From positions 7,626,001-7,690,000 of the forward strand of contig NC_043012.1 of NCBI RefSeq assembly GCF_006345805.1: DNA of 64,000 bases. Direction: 5' to 3'. Below the pieces are notes generated by a model. It was not told the DNA's origin and did no database searches. It saw nothing but the letters and a program-made list of their open reading frames with translations. The translations under genes were made by a program, and so were the position numbers. The stretch is from Octopus sinensis (taxonomy: Eukaryota). Below, in pieces: positions 4,385 through 53,928 of this stretch (the first letter of the stretch is position 1; each line of letters opens with the position of its first letter).

Positions 4385-6274
4385 GTGTATGTGCAATCTT
4401 TAACATAAGAGCTAAATCTATTTAGGTGACTCTTCGTCATATATTATATTTCTCTTGAGAAAATAATAATTTCATAACTGTATCAGTTATTATGAAGAGG
4501 TCAGCTCTATTTTCTTTGTAGCCCATAAATGTGGGTTGCTAGATCAGCTCAGTTGTCTGAGAATTAAGAAGACTAGAATGGAAACTGGTTTTCTGTTTAT
4601 GTTACATGATTTATTCAGAGGTGGAATGATTGTGTCTGTAAACTTTTCAGGTCTGAGACTTCTGGGTGGAAGGGACATAATTATTCTCAGTTTGGAAACC
4701 TTGCCCAAATTGGATTCTGCTAAAGACATTCAAGCACCAGCTGGTGGGTCAGATTAAATCTACCGTACAAAGAAAAAAAGCAGGGACAGTTTCTCTAGTG
4801 GGCTTCAACATGGTTTCCATTGACCAGATTTTACTCACAAAGACTTACAGAATGGTCATCATTTAACATCCATTTTCCATGATGGCATGGGCTGGACAGT
4901 TTCATATGAGCTGGAAAGCTGCACCAGGCTCCAATTGTCTGTTTTGACTTGGCTTCTGTGGATAGATGCCCTTTCTGATGCCAACCACTTCACAAAGTGT
5001 GCTGGATGCTCTTTATATGGCACCTTTTAAATTTCCTTTATCTGGTACAAGTTGCTTCTAATGTCACCAATAACATATATGATATAGGTGAAGCTGATAA
5101 ACCAAACTACTGGAAAACCCACAATCTTATCTTTACTTGTATGACCTCAGTATTACAAAAGTGTTTGATTTCTTCAAATTACTGCCAAAAGGTGCAGAGA
5201 TATTCTCCACAGGTATATGACATTTTACTTGTATTTATTTATTTATTCATTCATCTTACCTGAGACATTGTGTTACGGGATTGAATGTGAAGCCATGTAG
5301 CTAGAGTAAATTTCCTATCCATGAAGCTGTGACAAAGAGAACATAAAGTACCTTGTCAGGATCTTTTTTTCTTTGTGTGTGTGCGTGCATGCATACATTT
5401 TTTTTCTTCTTTTTACTCTACAACAAACAAGATTTTACATAAATTCAAAGACTAGATATAGTGGTGTAATACTTGAGAAGTTTTGTTGGTTGGTTGTTTT
5501 GTTAATGACTAATCAAAAAATTGTCAAGGCAAATATCCCCGAAAGAGGCGTGAGAACAGAATTATACATGCTGCTGTCAAAAAAATGTGGCTTTTCAGCA
5601 GTACAAGACACTCTGTAAAGAATAACAACAAGAAACTTTTTTTTTCCCATTTTCATGTTTTTTTCCTTCTTGTTTAGTTAGCTTGAGAAAATAGTTATTC
5701 TTGGACAGGTTTGAATCAGGACATTGCAGAATAACAGGGTGTTGTTGATTTTTATCATGTTCTAAGTAGCTTGACTTAAAGGACATAATATAGTGTAATT
5801 AACAAAGTGTAGGTTGTTGTTTAACCCCTGGCCAAAGTTGTTCCACCCCTGACACATGAATCTTTTGTATATTCACTACTTATATACATTGCCCAATGAT
5901 GATGATCATCATCATCATTTAACGTCTGTTTTGCTGGCATGGGTTGGACAGTTTGGCAAGCTGGAGAACTACACCAGGCTTCAATTGTCTGTTCTGGCAT
6001 GGTTTCTATGGGTGAATGCCCTTTCTAATGCCAAAACCTTACAAAGTATACAATGTTTTTTACATGATGCTAGCACAGGTGCTTTTTTCATGGCACCAGC
6101 ATTTCTTTTTAAGCAGTTTATGTGATTTGAGGGAGATCTAACTGTTCTTTCTGCGTGTCAAGTGACTGTTTGGCTTGTATGTTTCTATGTTTGAGGCTGT
6201 ATTATCATCGTTTGAATATCCACTTTTCTATGCTTGCATGTGTCAAATGGAATTTACTGAGGTAAATTTGGAAC

Positions 6275-13660: not shown

Positions 13661-14007
13661 CATCATCATCATCATCATCGTTTAACGTCTGTTCTCCATG
13701 CTAGCATGGGTTGGACGGTTCGACCAGGGATCTGGGAAGCCAGAAGGCTGCACCAGGCCCAGTCTGATCTGGCAGTGTTTCTACAGCTGGATGCCCTTCC
13801 TAACGCCAACCACTCCGTGAGTGTAGTGGGTGCTTTTTACATGCCACCGGCACAGGTGCCAGGCGAGGCTGGCAATGGCCACGATCGGATTGGTGCATTT
13901 TACGTGCCACCGGCACAGAAGCCAGTCTTGGCGGCACTGGCATCGGCCACGTTCGGATGGTGCTTTTTAACATGCCACAGGCACGGAAGCCAGTCTAGGC
14001 GGCGCTA
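13661..14007 (-). mobile_element. Family C element with three internal ~63-66 bp tandem units
   Basis: (CAT)n tail, GGATGCCCTTCCTAACGCCAACC motif, unit GGTGCTTTTTACRTGCCACCGGCAC... repeated three times at 13829-14007. Confidence 0.85.
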
Positions 14008-19436: not shown

Positions 19437-19925
19437 TCATCATCATCATTTAACATCTGATATCCATGCTGGCATTGGTTGGACAGTTTGACTAAGCTGG
19501 CATGTTGGAAGGCTGTGCCAGGATCAAGTCTGATTTGGCATGGTTTTCTATGGCTGAATGCCCTTCCTAATGCCAATCACTCCGAGAGTGTAATGGGTCT
19601 TTTTACATGCTACCAGCACGGGTGCCATTTGCATGACACTGGTATTTGCCACAACTGCGATTTTGCTTGGCTTGATGGGTCTTCTTCTCAAGCACAATAT
19701 AATGCCTAAGGTCTTGGTCATTGCATCTGTGAGGCCCAACACTAGAAAGGAGCTTGGCAACTCTGCCTCCATGAGGCCCAACACTTGAAAGAAACTCAGC
19801 CACCTCACCTCCGTGAGGCCTGCTCGAAAGAAATTCGGCCACCTCGCCTCTGTGGGGCCCAACACTCGAAAGGAACTTAACCACTTTTCCTCCATGAGGC
19901 CCAACATTTGAAAGGAACTCAGCCA
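19437..19925 (-). mobile_element. Long family C element with five ~42-bp tandem units at its 5' end
   Basis: (CAT)n tail at 19437; unit TGAGGCCCAACACTYGAAAGGAACTCAGCCACCTCGCCTCCR repeated at 19730-19925. Confidence 0.8.
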
Positions 19926-21468
19926 CACATATATAGACTAGGAGGTGGATTTTAAAAAGTCAGTTTTTTGGGGCTTTTTTTTTATAGATATTTCTCATAG
20001 AAAGATCCTTGGCCCAATCAGTCATACTCATGACCCAAAACTCATTGGCTATTTTCTTTGTCTTATGCTCCAGTTCATGTGATTCATATGATAAATGGAG
20101 ACAAATCACTTTGCAAAATATAAGCAACGAAAACAGGAGGGTAAACTAAAGAAAATGAAGTCATTTTGCCATAAATATAATATATATTAGCAAGAGGCAG
20201 TATCAATACTGAGAAGTAATATTTATTCCCACTTGAACGTGAATTTTCTATCAGAACAAACTATACAGCAATGGTTACAATCAGAAGAACTCTCATATGG
20301 GATTTTGGTACAAAATGCACTCTTGTTTATATTGCTAGCAGTGAGACAAATCCCAAGCCCCAAGACTATCAGATCATGTGATTTTGATCTTCCTTTGTCT
20401 TGTCAGTGATGGATAGTTGACTGCTAGAAATAACAGCAACTCCTCTCCTTGCTAGTGATATATCAAATGACAATGCCAGAACAGGTGCTGGTGTCATGAT
20501 TAGCCAATGAGCTTGTTTATATATATATATATATATAATATAGGCACAGGCATAGCTGTGTAATTATGAAGTTTGTTTCACAGTTACATGGTTTAGGGCT
20601 CAACTCCATTGCATGACATCTTGAGCAGGTCTTTTATATAGTCTCAGGCCAACCAAAAGCCTTCTGATGAGTTTAGTAGACTGAAAGAAGCCTGTGCAAC
20701 TATTAATCCAGACATTTTTATTTTATACTCTTTTCGGTTTTTTTCTGTAGAAGAGTGTATGCTCAAAATATCGAAGACATTTCCATTTTTCCTGAATGTC
20801 AAACTAATACACCTTGTTTGTTGTTTCTTCACCTGTATATGTCTTTTGTTTTTTGTGTGCTGTTTTAAACACTGTGTGTGTGTGTGTGTGATTATGACTT
20901 CTTGTCTTGACATCACATATAATATATGGTGATATCAAAAAATTTAAATAACTTTGTATTTCAGATTTTACCTGTAATTAGAGTTGAGATAAAGATTACA
21001 TCCATCCATCCATCTTCTCTACTCACTATTCCTGGGAGGGTTGTTGGGGTAGAATCCTCAGGCATCTCTTCCATAGGGTCCTATCAAAAACAACTATCAT
21101 TAGACTTGCCAGCAATGTTTGCTTGGACAGGATTTGAACTCATAATTAATTACTTCAAAGTATCTTGTCTCCAATATTTTACCAATTCTACCATCTACTC
21201 CTTATTAACCCAAAGGTTAGTTTGACACTGCACCTTACTGGCTTGTATGCATTCTTTCTGTGGGCTCAATGCAGAGCTAATTTGAGATAATAAGAGTGAA
21301 TTTGTACTTGCCTCAGGACAAATATACTTCTATTTATACAGGTAACCAGCATAATTTTATTGGTCAAGAAGTGCTTTTTTTTTTCTTTTCTTTTTTCACC
21401 CAATCAAGTGACAATAAATATAAAGTAGGGAGGGGAAAAAAATGACCATATATCTATCTATCTATCTA

Positions 21469-24464: not shown

Positions 24465-24680
24465 ACTGTGTAATGTAAAATGATTGTCACCATCATGAAA
24501 GTAATGTCATTCATTTCTAGTTTTCTACAAAATCATGACTGGCCATAGGGGAAAATTACCTCACTTGGAAACGAGTGAGGATTGGTGACAGAAGGGCATC
24601 TAACTGTAGAATACCTACCTTAAAAAAAAAAAAACTCCACCTGGCCCATGCAAACGTGGTAAAATGGTTGTTATGAGATG
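24330..24680 (+). mobile_element. Family E SINE (A-type head with C-type tail)
   Basis: A-like head followed by GGCCATAGGGGAAAATTACC...GAAGGGCATC...CCATGCAAACGTGGTAAAATGG; related sequence at 40940-41290 and 52520-52760. Confidence 0.6.
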
Positions 24681-24748
24681 TGTGTGTGTCATGTGTGTAT
24701 CGTTGGCAATTTTCTTTCTCCGTCTGCCCTTCTTTGGACTTTTTCTAT

Positions 24749-24783
24749 ATTTCTGATGAAGAGCTTCGCTTGAAACGTGAAAT
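24749..24783 (+). ncRNA. Minimal type-I hammerhead ribozyme-like motif
   Basis: ATTT-CTGATGA-A-GAGC-TTC-GCTT-GAAACGT-G-AAAT: stem I ATTT/AAAT, canonical core, stem II, palindromic ACGT stem III; cleavage triplet is GUG (non-permissive in this copy). Confidence 0.7.
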
Positions 24784-24892
24784 CTTTCTTTTCTTTCCTT
24801 TCCTGAGCGTCCAATAACACTGTACTTATTCCACGTCCTCACGTTTATTTTTTCTTGCTTGTTCATGTTTGGATTGAGTATATATATATATA

Positions 24893-25066
24893 TTAGCCAC
24901 TACACACATTTTTTTCTCTCTTTGTTTTTTCTGTGTCCCTTTCTGTAGAAGAGCATAGGCTTGAAACGTAAAAGACTTTTTTCTATTCCAGAGCATTATA
25001 CTAATACATCTGTTTGTTTTGTACACCACCTGTCTTCGTCTTTTGTTTTTTCGTAAACTCTCCCTA
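24893..25066 (+). mobile_element. ~170-bp hammerhead-bearing repeat unit (family H1)
   Basis: CTTT-CTGTAGA-A-GAGC-ATAG-GCTT-GAAACGT-A-AAAG at 24939-24974; homologous units at ~20715, 34552, 39800, 47110(-) and 53725(-). Confidence 0.7.
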
Positions 25067-25099
25067 TATATATATATATACATACATACATACATACAT

Positions 25100-25460
25100 A
25101 CAGGAGTGACTGTGTGGTAAGTAGCTTGCTTACCAACCACATGGTTACAGGTTCAGTCCCACTGCATGGCATCTTGGGCAAGTGTCTTCTACTACAGCCT
25201 CAGGCCGACCAAGGCCTTGTGAGTGGATTTGGTAGATGAAAAACTGAAAGAAGCCCGTTGTATATATATATGTGTTTGTCTGCCCAACATCGCTTGACAA
25301 CCAATGCTGGTGCATTTACATCTTATTCTATCGGCAAAAGAGCCCGATAGTTTAAGTTCTAGGCTTACAAAGAATAAGTCCTGGGGTCAGTTTGCTCAAC
25401 TAAAGGTGGCGCTCCAGCATGGCTGCAGTCAAATGACTGAAACAAGTAAAAGAATAAAAG
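25100..25460 (+). mobile_element. SINE family A
   Basis: Colinear with the consensus. Confidence 0.88.
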
Positions 25461-34190: not shown

Positions 34191-34551
34191 AAACACCTTG
34201 CTTCATTATATACAGTTTTTTTAAGTATCAGATTCAGCTATAAGAATTAGGTCGTTAGCATACAGAAATTCCCCTACATAGACACCTGGTTTACACTACA
34301 CTAGAGAACATGTATCTTTTTCTTTTTTTCTTTTTCAATCATTGAATTGTGGCCATGCTGAAGCACCATCTTGAAGAATTTTTACTCAAATGAATTGACC
34401 GGAATACTTTTTTTTTCTTTAAGGCTAGTGCTTATTCTTTTGGTCTCTTTTGCCAAACTGCTAAGTTATGAGGATGTAAACACACCAACACTTGTTGTCA
34501 AGTAGTTTGGAGGACGACACAGGCATAAAGACAAACACGTACACACACACA

Positions 34552-34727
34552 TCGTTAGCTCCTAAACGCATTTTTTTCTCTCCTTGTTTTTTTCTGTGTA
34601 TTTTTCTGCCAAAGAGCGTAGGCTCGAAACGTAAAAGACTTTTTCTATTCCTGAGCGCTATACTAATACATTTGTTTGTTTGTACTCCGCCTGCCTTCGT
34701 CTTTTGTTTATTTTCGTAAACTTTCCC

Positions 34728-39656: not shown

Positions 39657-40206
39657 TAGGAGTGGCTGTGTGGTAAGTAGCTTGCTTACCAACCACATGG
39701 TTCCAGGTTCAGTCCCACTGTGTAGCACCTTGAGCAAGTGTCTTCTACTATAGCCTCGGGTCGACCAAAGCCTTGTGAGTGGATTTGGTAGATGGAAACG
39801 TATATAGGCTCGAAACGTTAAAGACTTGTTTTATTTATATTTCCTGAGCGCCATACTAATACAATTGTTTTTTTGTATTCCACCTGCCTTCGTCTTTTGT
39901 TTATTTCCGTAAACCTGCCTTTGTCTTTTGTCTATTTTCATAAAGCTTCCCGTTATATATATGTGTGTGTGTGTGTGTGTGTTTGTTTGTATATGTTTGT
40001 ATGTCTGTGTCTGAACCCCCAACATTGCTTGACAATTGATGCTGGTGTGTTTACGTCCCTGTAACTTAGTGGTTCGGCAAAAGAGACTGCTAGAATAAGT
40101 ACTAGGCTTACAAAGAATAAGTCCTGGGGTCGATTTGCTCAACTAAAGGCGGTGCTCCAGCATGACCACAGTCAAATGACTGAAACAAGTAAAAGAGTAA
40201 AAGAGA
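39657..40206 (+). mobile_element. SINE family A interrupted by a 5'-truncated H1 unit (~39800-39952)
   Basis: SINE breaks at GATGGAAAC; insert begins ATAGGCTCGAAACGTTAAAGAC. Confidence 0.85.
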
Positions 40207-44819: not shown

Positions 44820-45095
44820 TACAGTTCTGTATTTAAGAGATGAGGAATTATGTACATCATTTACAATTGACGGATATTTGTCCCCAAGATTCCGAGTTCG
44901 ATTCCAGGCAGTGACCTGAATAATAATAATAATAATAATAATGATAACAACATCGTAAAATACCTTAGGAATGAGAACCCAGGTTCGAAATTTCCCTAAG
45001 ACACCTGATGAAGGCTGGAGGGTATATCAGCTGAAACGTGTTAACAACAAACAAGATGAGGACAAATATCCGTCAATTGTAAATAAATGTAAATA
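44820..45095 (+). mobile_element. Insertion with B-box, hammerhead-like motif and inverted end (H4), inside a SINE A (44735-45352, minus strand)
   Basis: 10-bp TSD TTCTTTGTAA (44810-44819 / 45096-45105); 25-bp perfect IR 44859-44883 / 45060-45084; GTTCGATTCC at 44896-44905; ACAC-CTGATGA-A-GGCTG...CAGCT-GAAAC-GTGT at 45001-45041. Confidence 0.8.
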
Positions 45096-46603: not shown

Positions 46604-47490
46604 AGAGTAGAAACCACAGTAGTAGTAGTAGTAGTAGGAGTAGTAGAAACAGATGTGACATAGCATAATTGTGAATCTTTAAAGGTGCTTGTGACTACAT
46701 GCTAATCAAAATAGTCTTTGTCTGCATTTAGTCTAGAATGTGTGTGTGGAAGTAGTTTTCTGTTGTGGGTTTCACTTGAGCTGTTCCTGGGAGATGAAGA
46801 CTTTATTGGCTCTAAAGTGAAAGGCCAGTCTTTTGTTATGACAGCGATGTTGGTGATGATGACAATAGCAATCAATGCTCAGCCTCACTCTTTAGCTATC
46901 ATTCAACTGACATTATCCACACATACTCACCACTGATGTAGTCTTCTCTATTGAACTACTGTTTAAAACTTTGCTTTGTCTAAAAGCTATGGGCTGGAGA
47001 TTTTCTTTGTTCAACTGTTTGTTAGCCTGGTTTCTGCATGTTGTAAGAGGCAAATAAAAGGGTTGGTTATAAGAAGGGCATCTGGCTGTAACACAATGCT
47101 TCAGAAAAATTATCCGTAGTTCAAATTTACAGAAAGCAAAAGACAGATAGGTGAGGGGACAACAAGCAGGTGTATTAGTTTGATGCTCAGGAAGAACGGA
47201 AAAGTCCTCAACATTTTGAGCCTATGCTCTTTGACAGAAAGGATTGAGAGGAAAAAAATTGGAGAGAGAGAATGAAGAAAAGAAAAACAAAATGTGTAGG
47301 GATTAAGAGTTCAACATGATGAAATAATCCATGTCAGCATGGAATACTGACTGTAAAATACTTGATAATGATAGCTGATATCCATGAATATATCATGGAA
47401 ATTTATCCTGCTTTTTTTTATATTTTATTCCAATTTTTTTCCCTATGTTAAATTCCTTCTATAACAATGTTTCTTTTTTCTTCTCTTCAG

Positions 47491-49198: not shown

Positions 49199-50422
49199 CA
49201 GGGGTTGGACAAAATAATGGAAACACCTTAAAATTTCAAACAAATTTATTTTAATACGGGGTAGGACTGCTTTTGGCAGTAATTGCAGTTTGAATTCTAC
49301 AAGGTATGGACTCATACAAAGTTTGAATTGTTTCCAAAGGAATTTTTGTCCATTCTCCGGCTAAAACAGTCTCCAGTTCTTGTGGTGATGATGGTGGAGG
49401 ATATTGACTCCTTACTTGTTTTTCTAAAATGCGCCATAAATGTTCAATGGTATTGAGATCTGGGGACTATGGTGGCCAAATAAGATTAGAATGTTCTTCG
49501 TGCCATTCACTAACAACTTTAGTTGTGTGAATTGGTGCATTATCATCCTGAAAGATTGCATTTCCCTCCAGAAACAATTCCACAACTATAGGATGAATTT
49601 CATCTGATAAAATGCTTAAATAGTCTTGACTGTTAATTCTGCCATGAAAGGAAACCATTGGGCTGGCTGATTTCCAAGATATAGCCATCACAGATCCTCT
49701 ATGTTTAACACTTGGAAGAAGGCAGTCTGGGTCAAATGCTTCTTTTGACAGTCTCTACATGAATACTCAGCTGGTGGTCAGAAATAAGATAAAAAAGATT
49801 ACTTGTCCAAGAAATTAACATTCTTCCACTGCTCTAGGGACCAATTCTGTAGGTTTTTACTCCACTCTAAACACTTTGCAGCGTTTGTTTTTGAAAGTAG
49901 TAGTTTTCTGATTGCAGCCCTCCCGTGTGAAGCTCCTGGTGAACAGTTTTTGTGGAAACTGGGTTCTTGAGGTGCAGTAATTTTGGGAGCTGTACTTTTG
50001 TGATCCTTTCTAACAATTTGAGTAAGAGTCCGACAGTCCCTATCTGAAAGTTTTGGTTTTCTTGCAGCGTTTTGTTTTGACGAGGAGGTTTTCCCTCTTT
50101 CTCAAAGGCTGTCTCATAACTTTCGAGACAGTACTTCTTGCTACACCAAACATTTCAGCTGTTTTCATTATGCTGCGCCTGCCAAATGACCACCAACAAT
50201 TTGACCTCTTTGAAAGTCCAATAGATCTGTCGTTTTAGCGAATTTTAATTAACTTTTGCTGACGATATCTGAAAAGAAAGAGCAATTTTAGTAAAACATA
50301 TTAAGCAACACTAACGATAAATCAAAAAACAAATATAAACAGGCTTTTGACAGTTTTATAGATATTTCAAAATTATGATACTGTGATGCTAGGCGTTTCC
50401 ATTATTTTTTGTCCAACCCCTG
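49199..50422 (-). mobile_element. Tc1/mariner (Tc1 type) DNA transposon, full-length, transposase inactivated
   Basis: TIRs CAGGGGTTGGACAAAATAATGGAAACACCT / AGGCGTTTCCATTATTTTTTGTCCAACCCCTG with left TA; peptides DFQRGQIVG, FQDDNAPIH, WPP*SPDLNTIEHLW, PTPY*. Confidence 0.92.
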
Positions 50423-51880: not shown

Positions 51881-53724
51881 ACATGTATATCTTTTTACAT
51901 ATTTCTGTCTTTCTATTTGTGAACATATGTAAATTAAAGTGTATTTGTTACTATTTACCTCTCTATATAATATTAACACCATCATCATTGTTTCAGCATC
52001 TTTTCCATGCTTACATGGAAATGATTCGTTAAGGCACATATTCTACAGCAGTATGTTCTCCTGTCACCAGATCTCCCCCATTTCTAAGCAAGGTGATATT
52101 TTCCCTAGTTTAGATATGTTTCCACAGGAGATTTCAAATTACAAACAGCACTTGTGAAAGTATTACTTCGGTGGATAAAAGAATATGATACACATGGCCG
52201 TGTGGTCAAGAAGCTTGCTTTGCAACCATGAAGTTTTGGGATCATTTCCAAATGTGGTACTTTGGGCAAGTGTCCTTGTGAGTGGATTTGGTAGGTGGAA
52301 ACTGAAAGAAGCCTGTTTTGTGTGTGTGTTTATATAAATATATATATATCACAGGCATGTGTGTACATGTGTATCTTTGTGGTTCAACAAGAGTCTGATA
52401 GAATAAGTACTGAGCTTTAAAATAAAAAAAGTACTGGGGTTAATTCATTTGACTAAAAATTCTTCAAGGTGGTGCTCCAGCATGGCCACAGTTTAATGAT
52501 CGAAACAAGTAAAAGAATATATATGTGTTTGTGTGTGTGCACCCCTGTTTTGACACCACATGTTGGGATAGTTGTAAATAAACATCGTCATACAAGCAAT
52601 GTCGGTCATTTCCAGTCTCCTGTCAAACATGTCTGACCATGGGGAAATATTACCTTACTTGGAAACATGTGGCTGACAACAAGAAAGGCGTCCAGCTGTA
52701 GAAAATCTATCCCAACAAATCTTGTTTGACCCTTGTAAGCATGGAAAAGTGGATGTTTAAAAAAGTAATCTTTTACATGTAAATTTAGTACATTTATTTC
52801 AGTGTGTGTGTCTGTGTGTTTGTGTGCGCATTTCAGTGCAGTGACTGACAGACACGCCAGTCCTAAAACAGTAGCTGTTTAGGAAATGTACACCAAGTGT
52901 ATATGTTGCCACCCCTATATATATTCATTGTACAAACTTACTCTGCTGTGTTAACTCTTGATAGCCACACCCAAACAAACATGTCTGTACAATTCTTCTA
53001 ATGCTTCTCATTAGAGTCTCAAATGTCTCTGTTAAATATTGAAATTTATATACACATGTTTATTTATTACGTATAATCGTTTCCTTAAAAGAAGCCATGT
53101 AGCCTCTCTGTATGGTTTGACCCCATGATATAGACTGTGTAGAAGTATCTGGAAGATTTAGAAACTTGAGATATGCGTTAGGATTCCAGACATGAGAAAG
53201 CCATACCAGCAGAGAGAATAACCGTATTTACTTGTGTATAATGCAAGAAATTTAATACAAAGCATCAGTGTCTAAAAGGAAGAGGTAGCATTATACTTGG
53301 GCTTAGAAAAAGAAAAATCAAGGATAAAATATGTTAATGACTTTAGGTGCAAAATATGACTGTGGTGTTGCTGCTTGTATTCACCATCATCATCATCATC
53401 ATCATTATTTTACATTTGCTTTTTTCTTACTGGCAAAGGTTGGGTGGGTCACCACAGTTTGAGACATTTATTATTGGAAGCTATTGCTCTTAAAACCCTG
53501 GTAATTTTATCATATTTTTCTAAGATGGCAAAATCGTTAGCATGCTGGGCAAAATGCTTAGTGGTATTTCATCTGTCTTCGTGTTCTGAGTTCAAATTCT
53601 GCTAGGGTCAGCTTTACCTTTCATCCATTTGGGGGCTAATAAAATAAGTATCAGTTGAGTCTTGGGGTCAGTGTAATCAACTTAACCCATTCCTCAAAAC
53701 TGCTGGCCTTGTGCCAAAATTTGA

Positions 53725-53896
53725 AACAAAAGACGAAGACAGGTGAGAGAACAACAAGCAGGTGTATTAGTTTAACACTCAGGAAGAATGGAAAAGTCTT
53801 TGACATTTCAAGCCTATGCTCTTTGACAGAAAGGATTGAGAAGGAAAAAAATGGAGAGAGAATGAGAAAAAATGTATAAGGATTAACAGTTCAACA

Positions 53897-53898
<2 letters not shown>
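53725..53898 (-). mobile_element. Family H1 hammerhead-like unit
   Basis: Minus strand CTTT-CTGTCAA-A-GAGC-ATAG-GCTT-GAAATGT-C-AAAG; close to the copy at 47110-47320; adjacent to (TA)n. Confidence 0.6.

Positions 53899-53928
<30 letters not shown>

Follow-up and report, generated by a model that had tools for sequence, protein, structure and literature searches.

Adjacent minimal hammerhead motifs in the Octopus sinensis genome are likely decayed solo copies of two dispersed, Penelope-derived repeat families

A locus of the Octopus sinensis genome, at which two hammerhead motifs follow each other on the same strand with a (TA)n tract between them, raises the question whether a small RNA that is processed into circles is encoded there or whether two separate insertions have come to lie side by side. 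Non-LTR retrozymes have been described as one unit repeated in tandem, whose canonical type I hammerheads lead to self-paired circles (PMC7229834). In a preprint, two consecutive complete motifs are demanded for retrozymes, which are described there as derived from Penelope pseudo-LTRs, with dispersed monomers present and with cleavage in one of nine assayed dimers (bioRxiv 10.64898/2026.07.22.740005). Most minimal hammerhead ribozyme (min-HHR) motifs were reported as single and as probably belonging to truncated elements (PMC4209133); a base bulged after A9 and the lack of a stem III loop are given in the same source as typical of Penelope-like elements, and the consensus in its supplement comprises a U-rich stretch, CUGANGAH, a G..C stem, GAAAN, a palindrome and an NUH triplet. 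In the initial annotation the locus was taken for a tandem pair of related, retrozyme-like units.

The window, i.e. the whole stretch of 64 kb that was analysed, has a GC content of about 37% and contains many microsatellites and short repeats, among them 64 (TA)n tracts of at least four units and putative SINE-like repeats that resemble those of octopuses. The annotated arrangement of two adjoining plus-strand units with a (TA)n spacer was found at 24698-24878 and about 24890-25065 (Table 1). Unit 1 opens with ATCGTT directly after a (GT)n-like tract, and the 5′ end of unit 2 blurs into the (TA)n. No Pfam match was obtained for the ORFs overlapping the two units, which were read as non-coding. 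The upstream flank (24480-24620) is a moderately repeated element with a summed contig depth of up to about 11,000, so that at least four repeats have accumulated at the locus. Elsewhere in the window, minisatellites are located at 19730-19926 (42 bp, 4.8 copies) and 13829-14003 (68 bp, 2.7 copies). Three consecutive ORFs on the minus strand of 49254-50234 gave weak DDE_3 and helix-turn-helix Pfam matches below the cut-off, and likely represent a decayed Tc1/mariner-type transposase. Nothing was found in a sigma-70 promoter scan, the consensus of which is bacterial and irrelevant to animal DNA.

Table 1. Features of the locus and family B copies in the window
Feature	Position	Strand	Remarks
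Family B, older, more decayed solo copy	20696..20868	+	profile, alignment
Unit 1, family A short repeat, solo copy	24698..24878	+	about 181 nt, 45% T, GC 38%
min-HHR of unit 1	24749..24783	+	type I; 4-bp stem I, 4-bp stem II, GAAA-CGU
TTCCTGAGCG motif, unit 1	24800..24809	+	able to pair with GAA and the stem II 3′ strand
(TA)n spacer	24879..24893		15 nt; likely target site or tail
Unit 2, family B short repeat, solo copy	~24890..25065	+	about 176 nt, 44% T, GC 34%
min-HHR of unit 2	24939..24974	+	type I; 4-bp stem I, 4-bp stem II, GAAA-CGU
TTCCTGAGCG motif, decayed copy in unit 2	24986..24995	+	contigs, alignment
(TA)n(TACA)n tract	25066..25102		3′ of unit 2; then a repeat that we take to be SINE-like
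Family B, full-length solo copy, most closely related to unit 2 within the window	34551..34727	+	between (CA)n and (TA)n
Family B, 5′-truncated copy	39803..39953	+	31-bp tandem duplication near the 3′ end
Second family B subfamily, solo copy	47116..47320	-	profile, alignment
Second family B subfamily, solo copy	53711..53901	-	5′ end on (TA)n

Both units have the claimed layout of a stem I arm, the CTG core, a bulged A, GAGC and GCTT on either side of a loop, GAAACGT, one further nucleotide and the second stem I arm, and their identification as minimal type I hammerheads with a palindromic ACGU stem III was borne out. The pattern GAAGAGCN{2,6}GCTYGAAACGT was matched twice in the window, compared with an average of 0.00 over 100 shuffles, and a relaxed min-HHR scan of the window yielded three matches, compared with a mean of 0.03 and a maximum of one in 30 block shuffles. 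The two motifs are genuine and greatly exceed chance expectation. In the Rfam search of the window there was no hammerhead match at the gathering score and none among the 14 matches up to E=10; weak miRNA matches located on a microsatellite were set aside. A reading as type II or permuted hammerhead with the downstream CTGAGC as core, compared by means of sequence blocks from PMC10085705, was rejected on inspection, since this stretch lacks NGA and no pair of stem I can form beside C3. Across seven copies, stems I and II pair in 49 of 49 cells, a value equalled by 81 of 500 shuffles, and covariation in these stems was not significant.

Each of the two motifs carries defects. In unit 1 the core CUGAUGA is intact (24753-24759) and is followed by the bulged A; the cleavage position 17 (24779) is G, which gives the triplet GUG and not NUH. 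In unit 2 position 17 (24970) is A and the triplet GUA fits NUH; its core reads CUGUAGA, with U at position 6 (24946) in place of the conserved A6. The base of stem II (G10.1-C11.1) is G-U in both units. Among the 56 published min-HHR representatives, as counted from the supplement of PMC4209133, eight have a G-U pair at the foot of stem II and one has G at position 17, so that neither change is absolutely disqualifying. A6 is present in all 56, which in part reflects search bias, since the conserved core was demanded by the descriptor. Changes of A6, shown for A6C, reduce activity in Mg2+ (PMC3088659, PMC7151607).

The two units do not form a tandem repeat. A global alignment gave 109 identical columns out of 195 (56%), and the units have in common only a core of about 55 nt. 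None of 1000 shuffles attained the local score of this core (57), while the score of the 5′ flank was attained by 482 and that of the 3′ flank by 420 of 1000. For the control pair, unit 2 and the copy at 34551-34727, which lie 10 kb apart and are identical in 151 of 180 columns (84%), none of 1000 shuffles attained the score of either flank. The designation as related units therefore holds for the core and fails for the flanks. With flanks that cannot be aligned, two distinct families and no period of 170-190 bp detected at the locus by Tandem Repeats Finder, the designation as a tandem pair had to be given up. For a core conserved above its flanks, which had likewise been expected, the outcome was mixed. 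Such a core was found between families A and B; among the copies of family B, conservation is no higher in the hammerhead region (79%, 367 of 465 pairwise cells) than in the 3′ flank (80%, 622 of 778), with 87% at the 11 catalytic positions (117 of 135). Many of the changes in family B are located at CpG sites, as would be expected from neutral decay after insertion.

With the family B profile six copies were detected in the window, on both strands (20.7, 24.9, 34.6, 39.8, 47.2 and 53.8 kb), and none of them lies beside a full copy of its own family. Unit 1 is the sole window copy of family A beyond core matches. These statements on arrays cover the 64-kb window, and arrays may exist elsewhere in the genome. 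In six of seven copies an end lies at most 10 nt from a TA, CA or GT tract, compared with 6.8% of all window positions; such a tract may be either target or tail. Besides unit 2, three family B copies adjoin (TA)n. Family A has the 5′ terminus ATC(G/A)T in common with the two subfamilies of family B (24698, 34551, 53901, 47320), with unrelated sequence directly after it in these families. The copy at 39.8 kb is truncated inside loop II and adjoins a truncated SINE-like repeat; the duplication of its 3′ end (39882-39943) consists of 31-bp copies that are 87% identical, a length equal to that of a Penelope tail. A third min-HHR family is present at 44859-45084 (core at 45005, long stem II) within 28-nt inverted arms (44859-44886 and 45057-45084), an arrangement that resembles inverted Penelope insertions. 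Its stem I is out of register with position 17, which suggests a small deletion.

Public contigs of four of 24 runs (X1, X4, X11 and X12) were matched to 24480-25065 at 80% likeness; no holder of the sequence was listed as RNA. For X11 and X12, in which the family sequence is present as contigs, an origin from RNA or DNA is ambiguous, and the contigs carry no signal on RNA ends, strand or circles. The numbers of contigs amounted to 19,442 for X1 and 23,804 for X4. Summed depth, which is not a copy number, reached 1e5-1e6 over both units, compared with 39 for the sole X1 contig that continues the upstream flank, and shows that the two families are large. Contigs of all four runs start at 24693-24698, some of them after unrelated sequence, and loose contig ends are found at 24693 and 24893; thus, within other flanks each unit keeps a 5′ end of its own. 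Among the 32 pieces listed (47,704 more lie outside the listing) none joins unit 1 to unit 2, which is weak evidence, as microsatellites interrupt contigs assembled from short reads. Back-jumps at single-locus depth (X4 25049->24941 with 86, X4 25042->24992 with 116 and X11 24784->24697 with 28) indicate partial tandems at some loci.

A motif scan of metagenomes returned two loci, neither of which is a member of family A or B. One of them holds an unrelated min-HHR as part of an inverted pair, lacks ORFs of at least 100 aa and was set aside; at about 4940-5100 of this locus (L001) two opposed min-HHR-like motifs lie within a long inverted repeat, and the intact one, with a stem II formed by GAGC/GCTC as in the present units' layout, is similar to the Acropora Neptune motif of PMC4209133. 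The other (L002) lies within bacterial transporter genes and was set aside as well. Two loci from prokaryote genomes without the hammerhead core pattern were taken as chance matches, and the scan of viral contigs gave none.

The contigs also separate defects of the single copies from properties of the families. At 24771 the majority letter is C (131132 of 142332 depth in X1, 92%), and C11.1 is restored by the majority in family B too (91% of X1 depth at 24962). About half of the family A depth carries T at 24779 (15346 of 31198). The G-U base and G17 are hence defects of these copies, and with its majority letters family A has an intact core and the triplet GUU. The loss of A6 is of another kind, as it extends over family B: A6 is absent in 5/5 window copies (four with U, one with C), and A accounts for less than 10% of the depth at position 6 of family B contigs in three runs. 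No T>A change of at least 10% was found at 24946 in X1, X4 or X11, and in X12 this position is not among the four listed of six places with such a change. Lunse et al. reportedly described dimeric Penelope-associated hammerhead variants in 2017, and A6 variants may be included among them.

Could the pair nevertheless be the remnant of a single retrozyme dimer, cleaved by a double hammerhead to give a circle of about 191 nt? The units lie on the same strand, their cut sites (24779 and 24970) are 191 nt apart, both have the ACGU palindrome, and stem III could cross-pair on paper. Against this stand the unrelated flanks, the large family to which each unit belongs and the distance of 10 kb to the nearest relative of unit 2; moreover, release would yield a chimeric piece made up of a family A 3′ half and a family B 5′ half. 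The predicted probability of the cis double-hammerhead fold is 2e-17 and that of either monomer hammerhead fold 1-2e-4, values to be read with the fact that folding programs score minimal hammerheads too low. In the cross-dimer each stem I would consist of three A-U pairs, and the GUG site of unit 1 would depend on the core of unit 2 with its U6. Since excision of a monomer or release of the 191-nt piece requires both cuts, the GUG site, the U6 core and the weak stems I leave it unsupported; a single cut at 24970 by the unit 1 core might at best be conceivable. The hammerheads at this locus are thus predicted to be inactive as a pair, and descent from one dimer is very improbable. The proposal of a retrozyme-like dimer that yields circles of 170-190 nt received no support, the units being members of different dispersed families.

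A retrozyme origin may also be placed further back, with families A and B as monomer offspring of non-LTR retrozyme arrays elsewhere and the locus still a chance A-B pair. Arrays would be transcribed, dimeric hammerheads would cut the RNA, the pieces would be circularised, and Penelope enzymes would reverse-transcribe the circles. The fixed 5′ and 3′ ends with a hammerhead in the middle of the copy would fit a circle copied from a fixed start, the monomer fraction of retrozyme families spans 0 to 1 (bioRxiv 10.64898/2026.07.22.740005), unit size and low GC agree with PMC7229834, and the family A majority has an intact core with GUU. However, none of the six family B copies in the window adjoins another full family B copy, and none of the 12 joints listed ties the 3′ end of a unit to its own 5′ start, the highest joint depth among them being 157 compared with summed depths of 1e5-1e6. 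The family B core without A6 speaks against this origin as well, and so does weak self-pairing: the circular folds amount to -21.7 kcal/mol for unit 1 and -12.1 kcal/mol for unit 2 (-15.8 for a third circular fold) and the pair folds like shuffled sequence (z 0.73), whereas published circles are described as highly self-paired (PMC7229834). Offspring of retrozyme arrays are hence considered unlikely.

What is to be explained are two hammerhead motifs that belong to separate families, dispersed solo copies in a microsatellite neighbourhood, and core defects. We consider it likely, with a probability of about three in four, that the locus consists of two decayed Penelope-derived copies from two high-copy families, which were inserted, likely independently, into one (TA)n tract and form a predicted non-cleaving pair. 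As families A and B differ and likely arrived independently, Penelope-type debris is a likelier description than a circle-making retrozyme dimer; the original recognition of remnants of a small mobile RNA proved right. Since no empty-site allele was seen, we infer rather than observe the order and independence of the insertions. Families A and B likely derive from Penelope-like pseudo-LTRs. No reverse transcriptase or GIY-YIG domain was found among 249 of the 277 window ORFs (stop-to-stop, at least 62 aa; 28 low-complexity ORFs excluded), and this link is drawn from the anatomy of the copies; from the (TA)n targeting, a Neptune or Hydra clade would be expected. The same 249 ORFs gave no Pfam match at the curated cut-off, and no host gene was identified. 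Penelope-like elements are described with (TA)n targets, tails of 30-40 bp and inverted truncated copies (PMC8557442), tend to land in or beside earlier copies (PMC6765202), and are abundant and in part recent in Octopus vulgaris (PMC13282606). By a rough estimate, a family A copy ending in (TA)n would have a chance of a few per cent of a family B neighbour, so that at such density A-B pairs would be expected by the hundreds per genome.

Under this Penelope-derived origin, an autonomous Penelope-like element elsewhere would supply reverse transcriptase and GIY-YIG endonuclease in trans, and the endonuclease would nick AT-rich or (TA)n DNA. Reverse transcription would begin about 95-99 nt 3′ of the position at which the hammerhead cuts and would proceed over about 175-180 nt of RNA that is either uncut or religated, which would place the hammerhead mid-copy in solo insertions. 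Inserted copies would then decay, chiefly at CpG sites. The distance from cut site to 3′ end is 99 nt in unit 1 and 95 nt in unit 2; for Anolis Poseidon, with the cut at +26 and the start of reverse transcription at +111-118, a distance of 85-92 nt can be calculated (PMC11167929). Hammerhead mutants of that element insert, and its ribozyme cuts only with protein (PMC11167929). Family B would have spread with a core without A6, so that efficient self-cleavage was likely unneeded for its spread.

Mobilisation of both families by LINE rather than Penelope enzymes, as SINE-like repeats with the hammerhead as a captured relic, was also weighed. The window holds no Penelope ORF, and SINE-like repeats with a hammerhead are described from schistosomes (PMC6765202); on the other side, the motif is of the minimal type typical of Penelope-like elements (PMC4209133). 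The search of the window for tRNA genes yielded none, and the strand with the motifs consists of 44-45% T with long T runs. Such runs would halt RNA polymerase III. A SINE-like nature is given very little credence.

Like the Penelope min-HHRs of PMC4209133, the motifs are of type I with a short stem I and an unpaired base between A9 and stem II, have no stem III loop, show palindromic 15.2/16.2 and U-rich and AU-rich flanks, and belong to multiple families per genome with chiefly single dispersed motifs; the 4-bp stem II of the units resembles that of the Acropora digitifera Neptune motif from the same source. They differ from the pseudo-LTR min-HHRs described there (Cervera and De la Pena 2014) in that no adjoining RT/EN ORF was seen in the window, and from the published min-HHRs in position 6, which is U and once C in family B and A in theirs. 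With non-LTR retrozymes (Cervera and de la Pena 2020, PMC7229834) they share a non-coding unit of suitable size and composition (181 and 176 nt with 38% and 34% GC, within the range of 150-450 bp and less than 50% GC), one type I hammerhead per unit and a likely dependence on Penelope enzymes (also bioRxiv 10.64898/2026.07.22.740005), and with the retrozymes of Li, Clavereau and Pollet 2026 the dispersed monomers (same preprint). Unlike non-LTR retrozymes, units 1 and 2 are not head-to-tail copies of one unit and do not provide two consecutive complete motifs (GUG in unit 1, U6 in unit 2); their motif is minimal instead of canonical, and their self-pairing is weak. With Poseidon PAc of Anolis carolinensis (Frangieh et al. 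2024, PMC11167929) they have in common a hammerhead about 85-99 nt before the 3′ end, AT-rich targets, a tail of 30-40 bp and a spread compatible with an inactive hammerhead; PAc is autonomous with a hammerhead that overlaps the ORF start, whereas the units are without ORF.

A further feature common to families A and B, and present in all family B copies, is the TTCCTGAGCG motif 19-25 nt past the cut site. The peak of contig depth inside unit 1 falls at this motif. In unit 2 it is decayed, with T instead of A at 24990 (75% of the X1 depth) and G instead of A at 24995 (74%). Pairing of the motif with the stem II strand would form an anti-hammerhead helix, which in the best-kept copy was predicted at 0.78, compared with 0.08 for stem II, and was predicted to beat stem II in three of six copies. 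The helix pairs in 63 of 76 cells, a value equalled by 292 of 500 shuffles, and neither compensatory change nor covariation support was found in the copies. With no covariation and a predicted advantage in only three of six copies, the helix is unproven; the motif may serve protein binding or act as a switch, or it may stem from an old partial duplication.

A more far-reaching proposal, which is speculative and for which we see little probability, is that family B is an abundant Penelope-dependent element whose master carried U6, either as an active A6U variant or as a substrate-only partner, with TTCCTGAGCG as a switch. As a substrate, family B RNA would be cut in cross-family dimers by intact cores like those of family A; the ACGU palindrome and the UUU/AAA stem I arms are common to both families. 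As a switch, TTCCTGAGCG would keep the monomer inactive until a retrotransposon protein binds. No account of families A and B or of a U6 family was found in the part of the literature that was surveyed, and a U6 family would be overlooked by standard descriptors.

The locus adds two families of Penelope-type minimal hammerheads, a kind already described as massively present and widespread across the genomes of animals, and it advises caution, as adjacent motifs in microsatellite hot spots can imitate a retrozyme dimer. If a family with a defective core has spread this far, this would support the dispensability of hammerhead cleavage for Penelope-type insertion seen in vitro, and descriptor searches would undercount such elements. 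If, on the other hand, the U6 RNA cleaves, alone or across families, it would represent a new natural variant of the hammerhead core.
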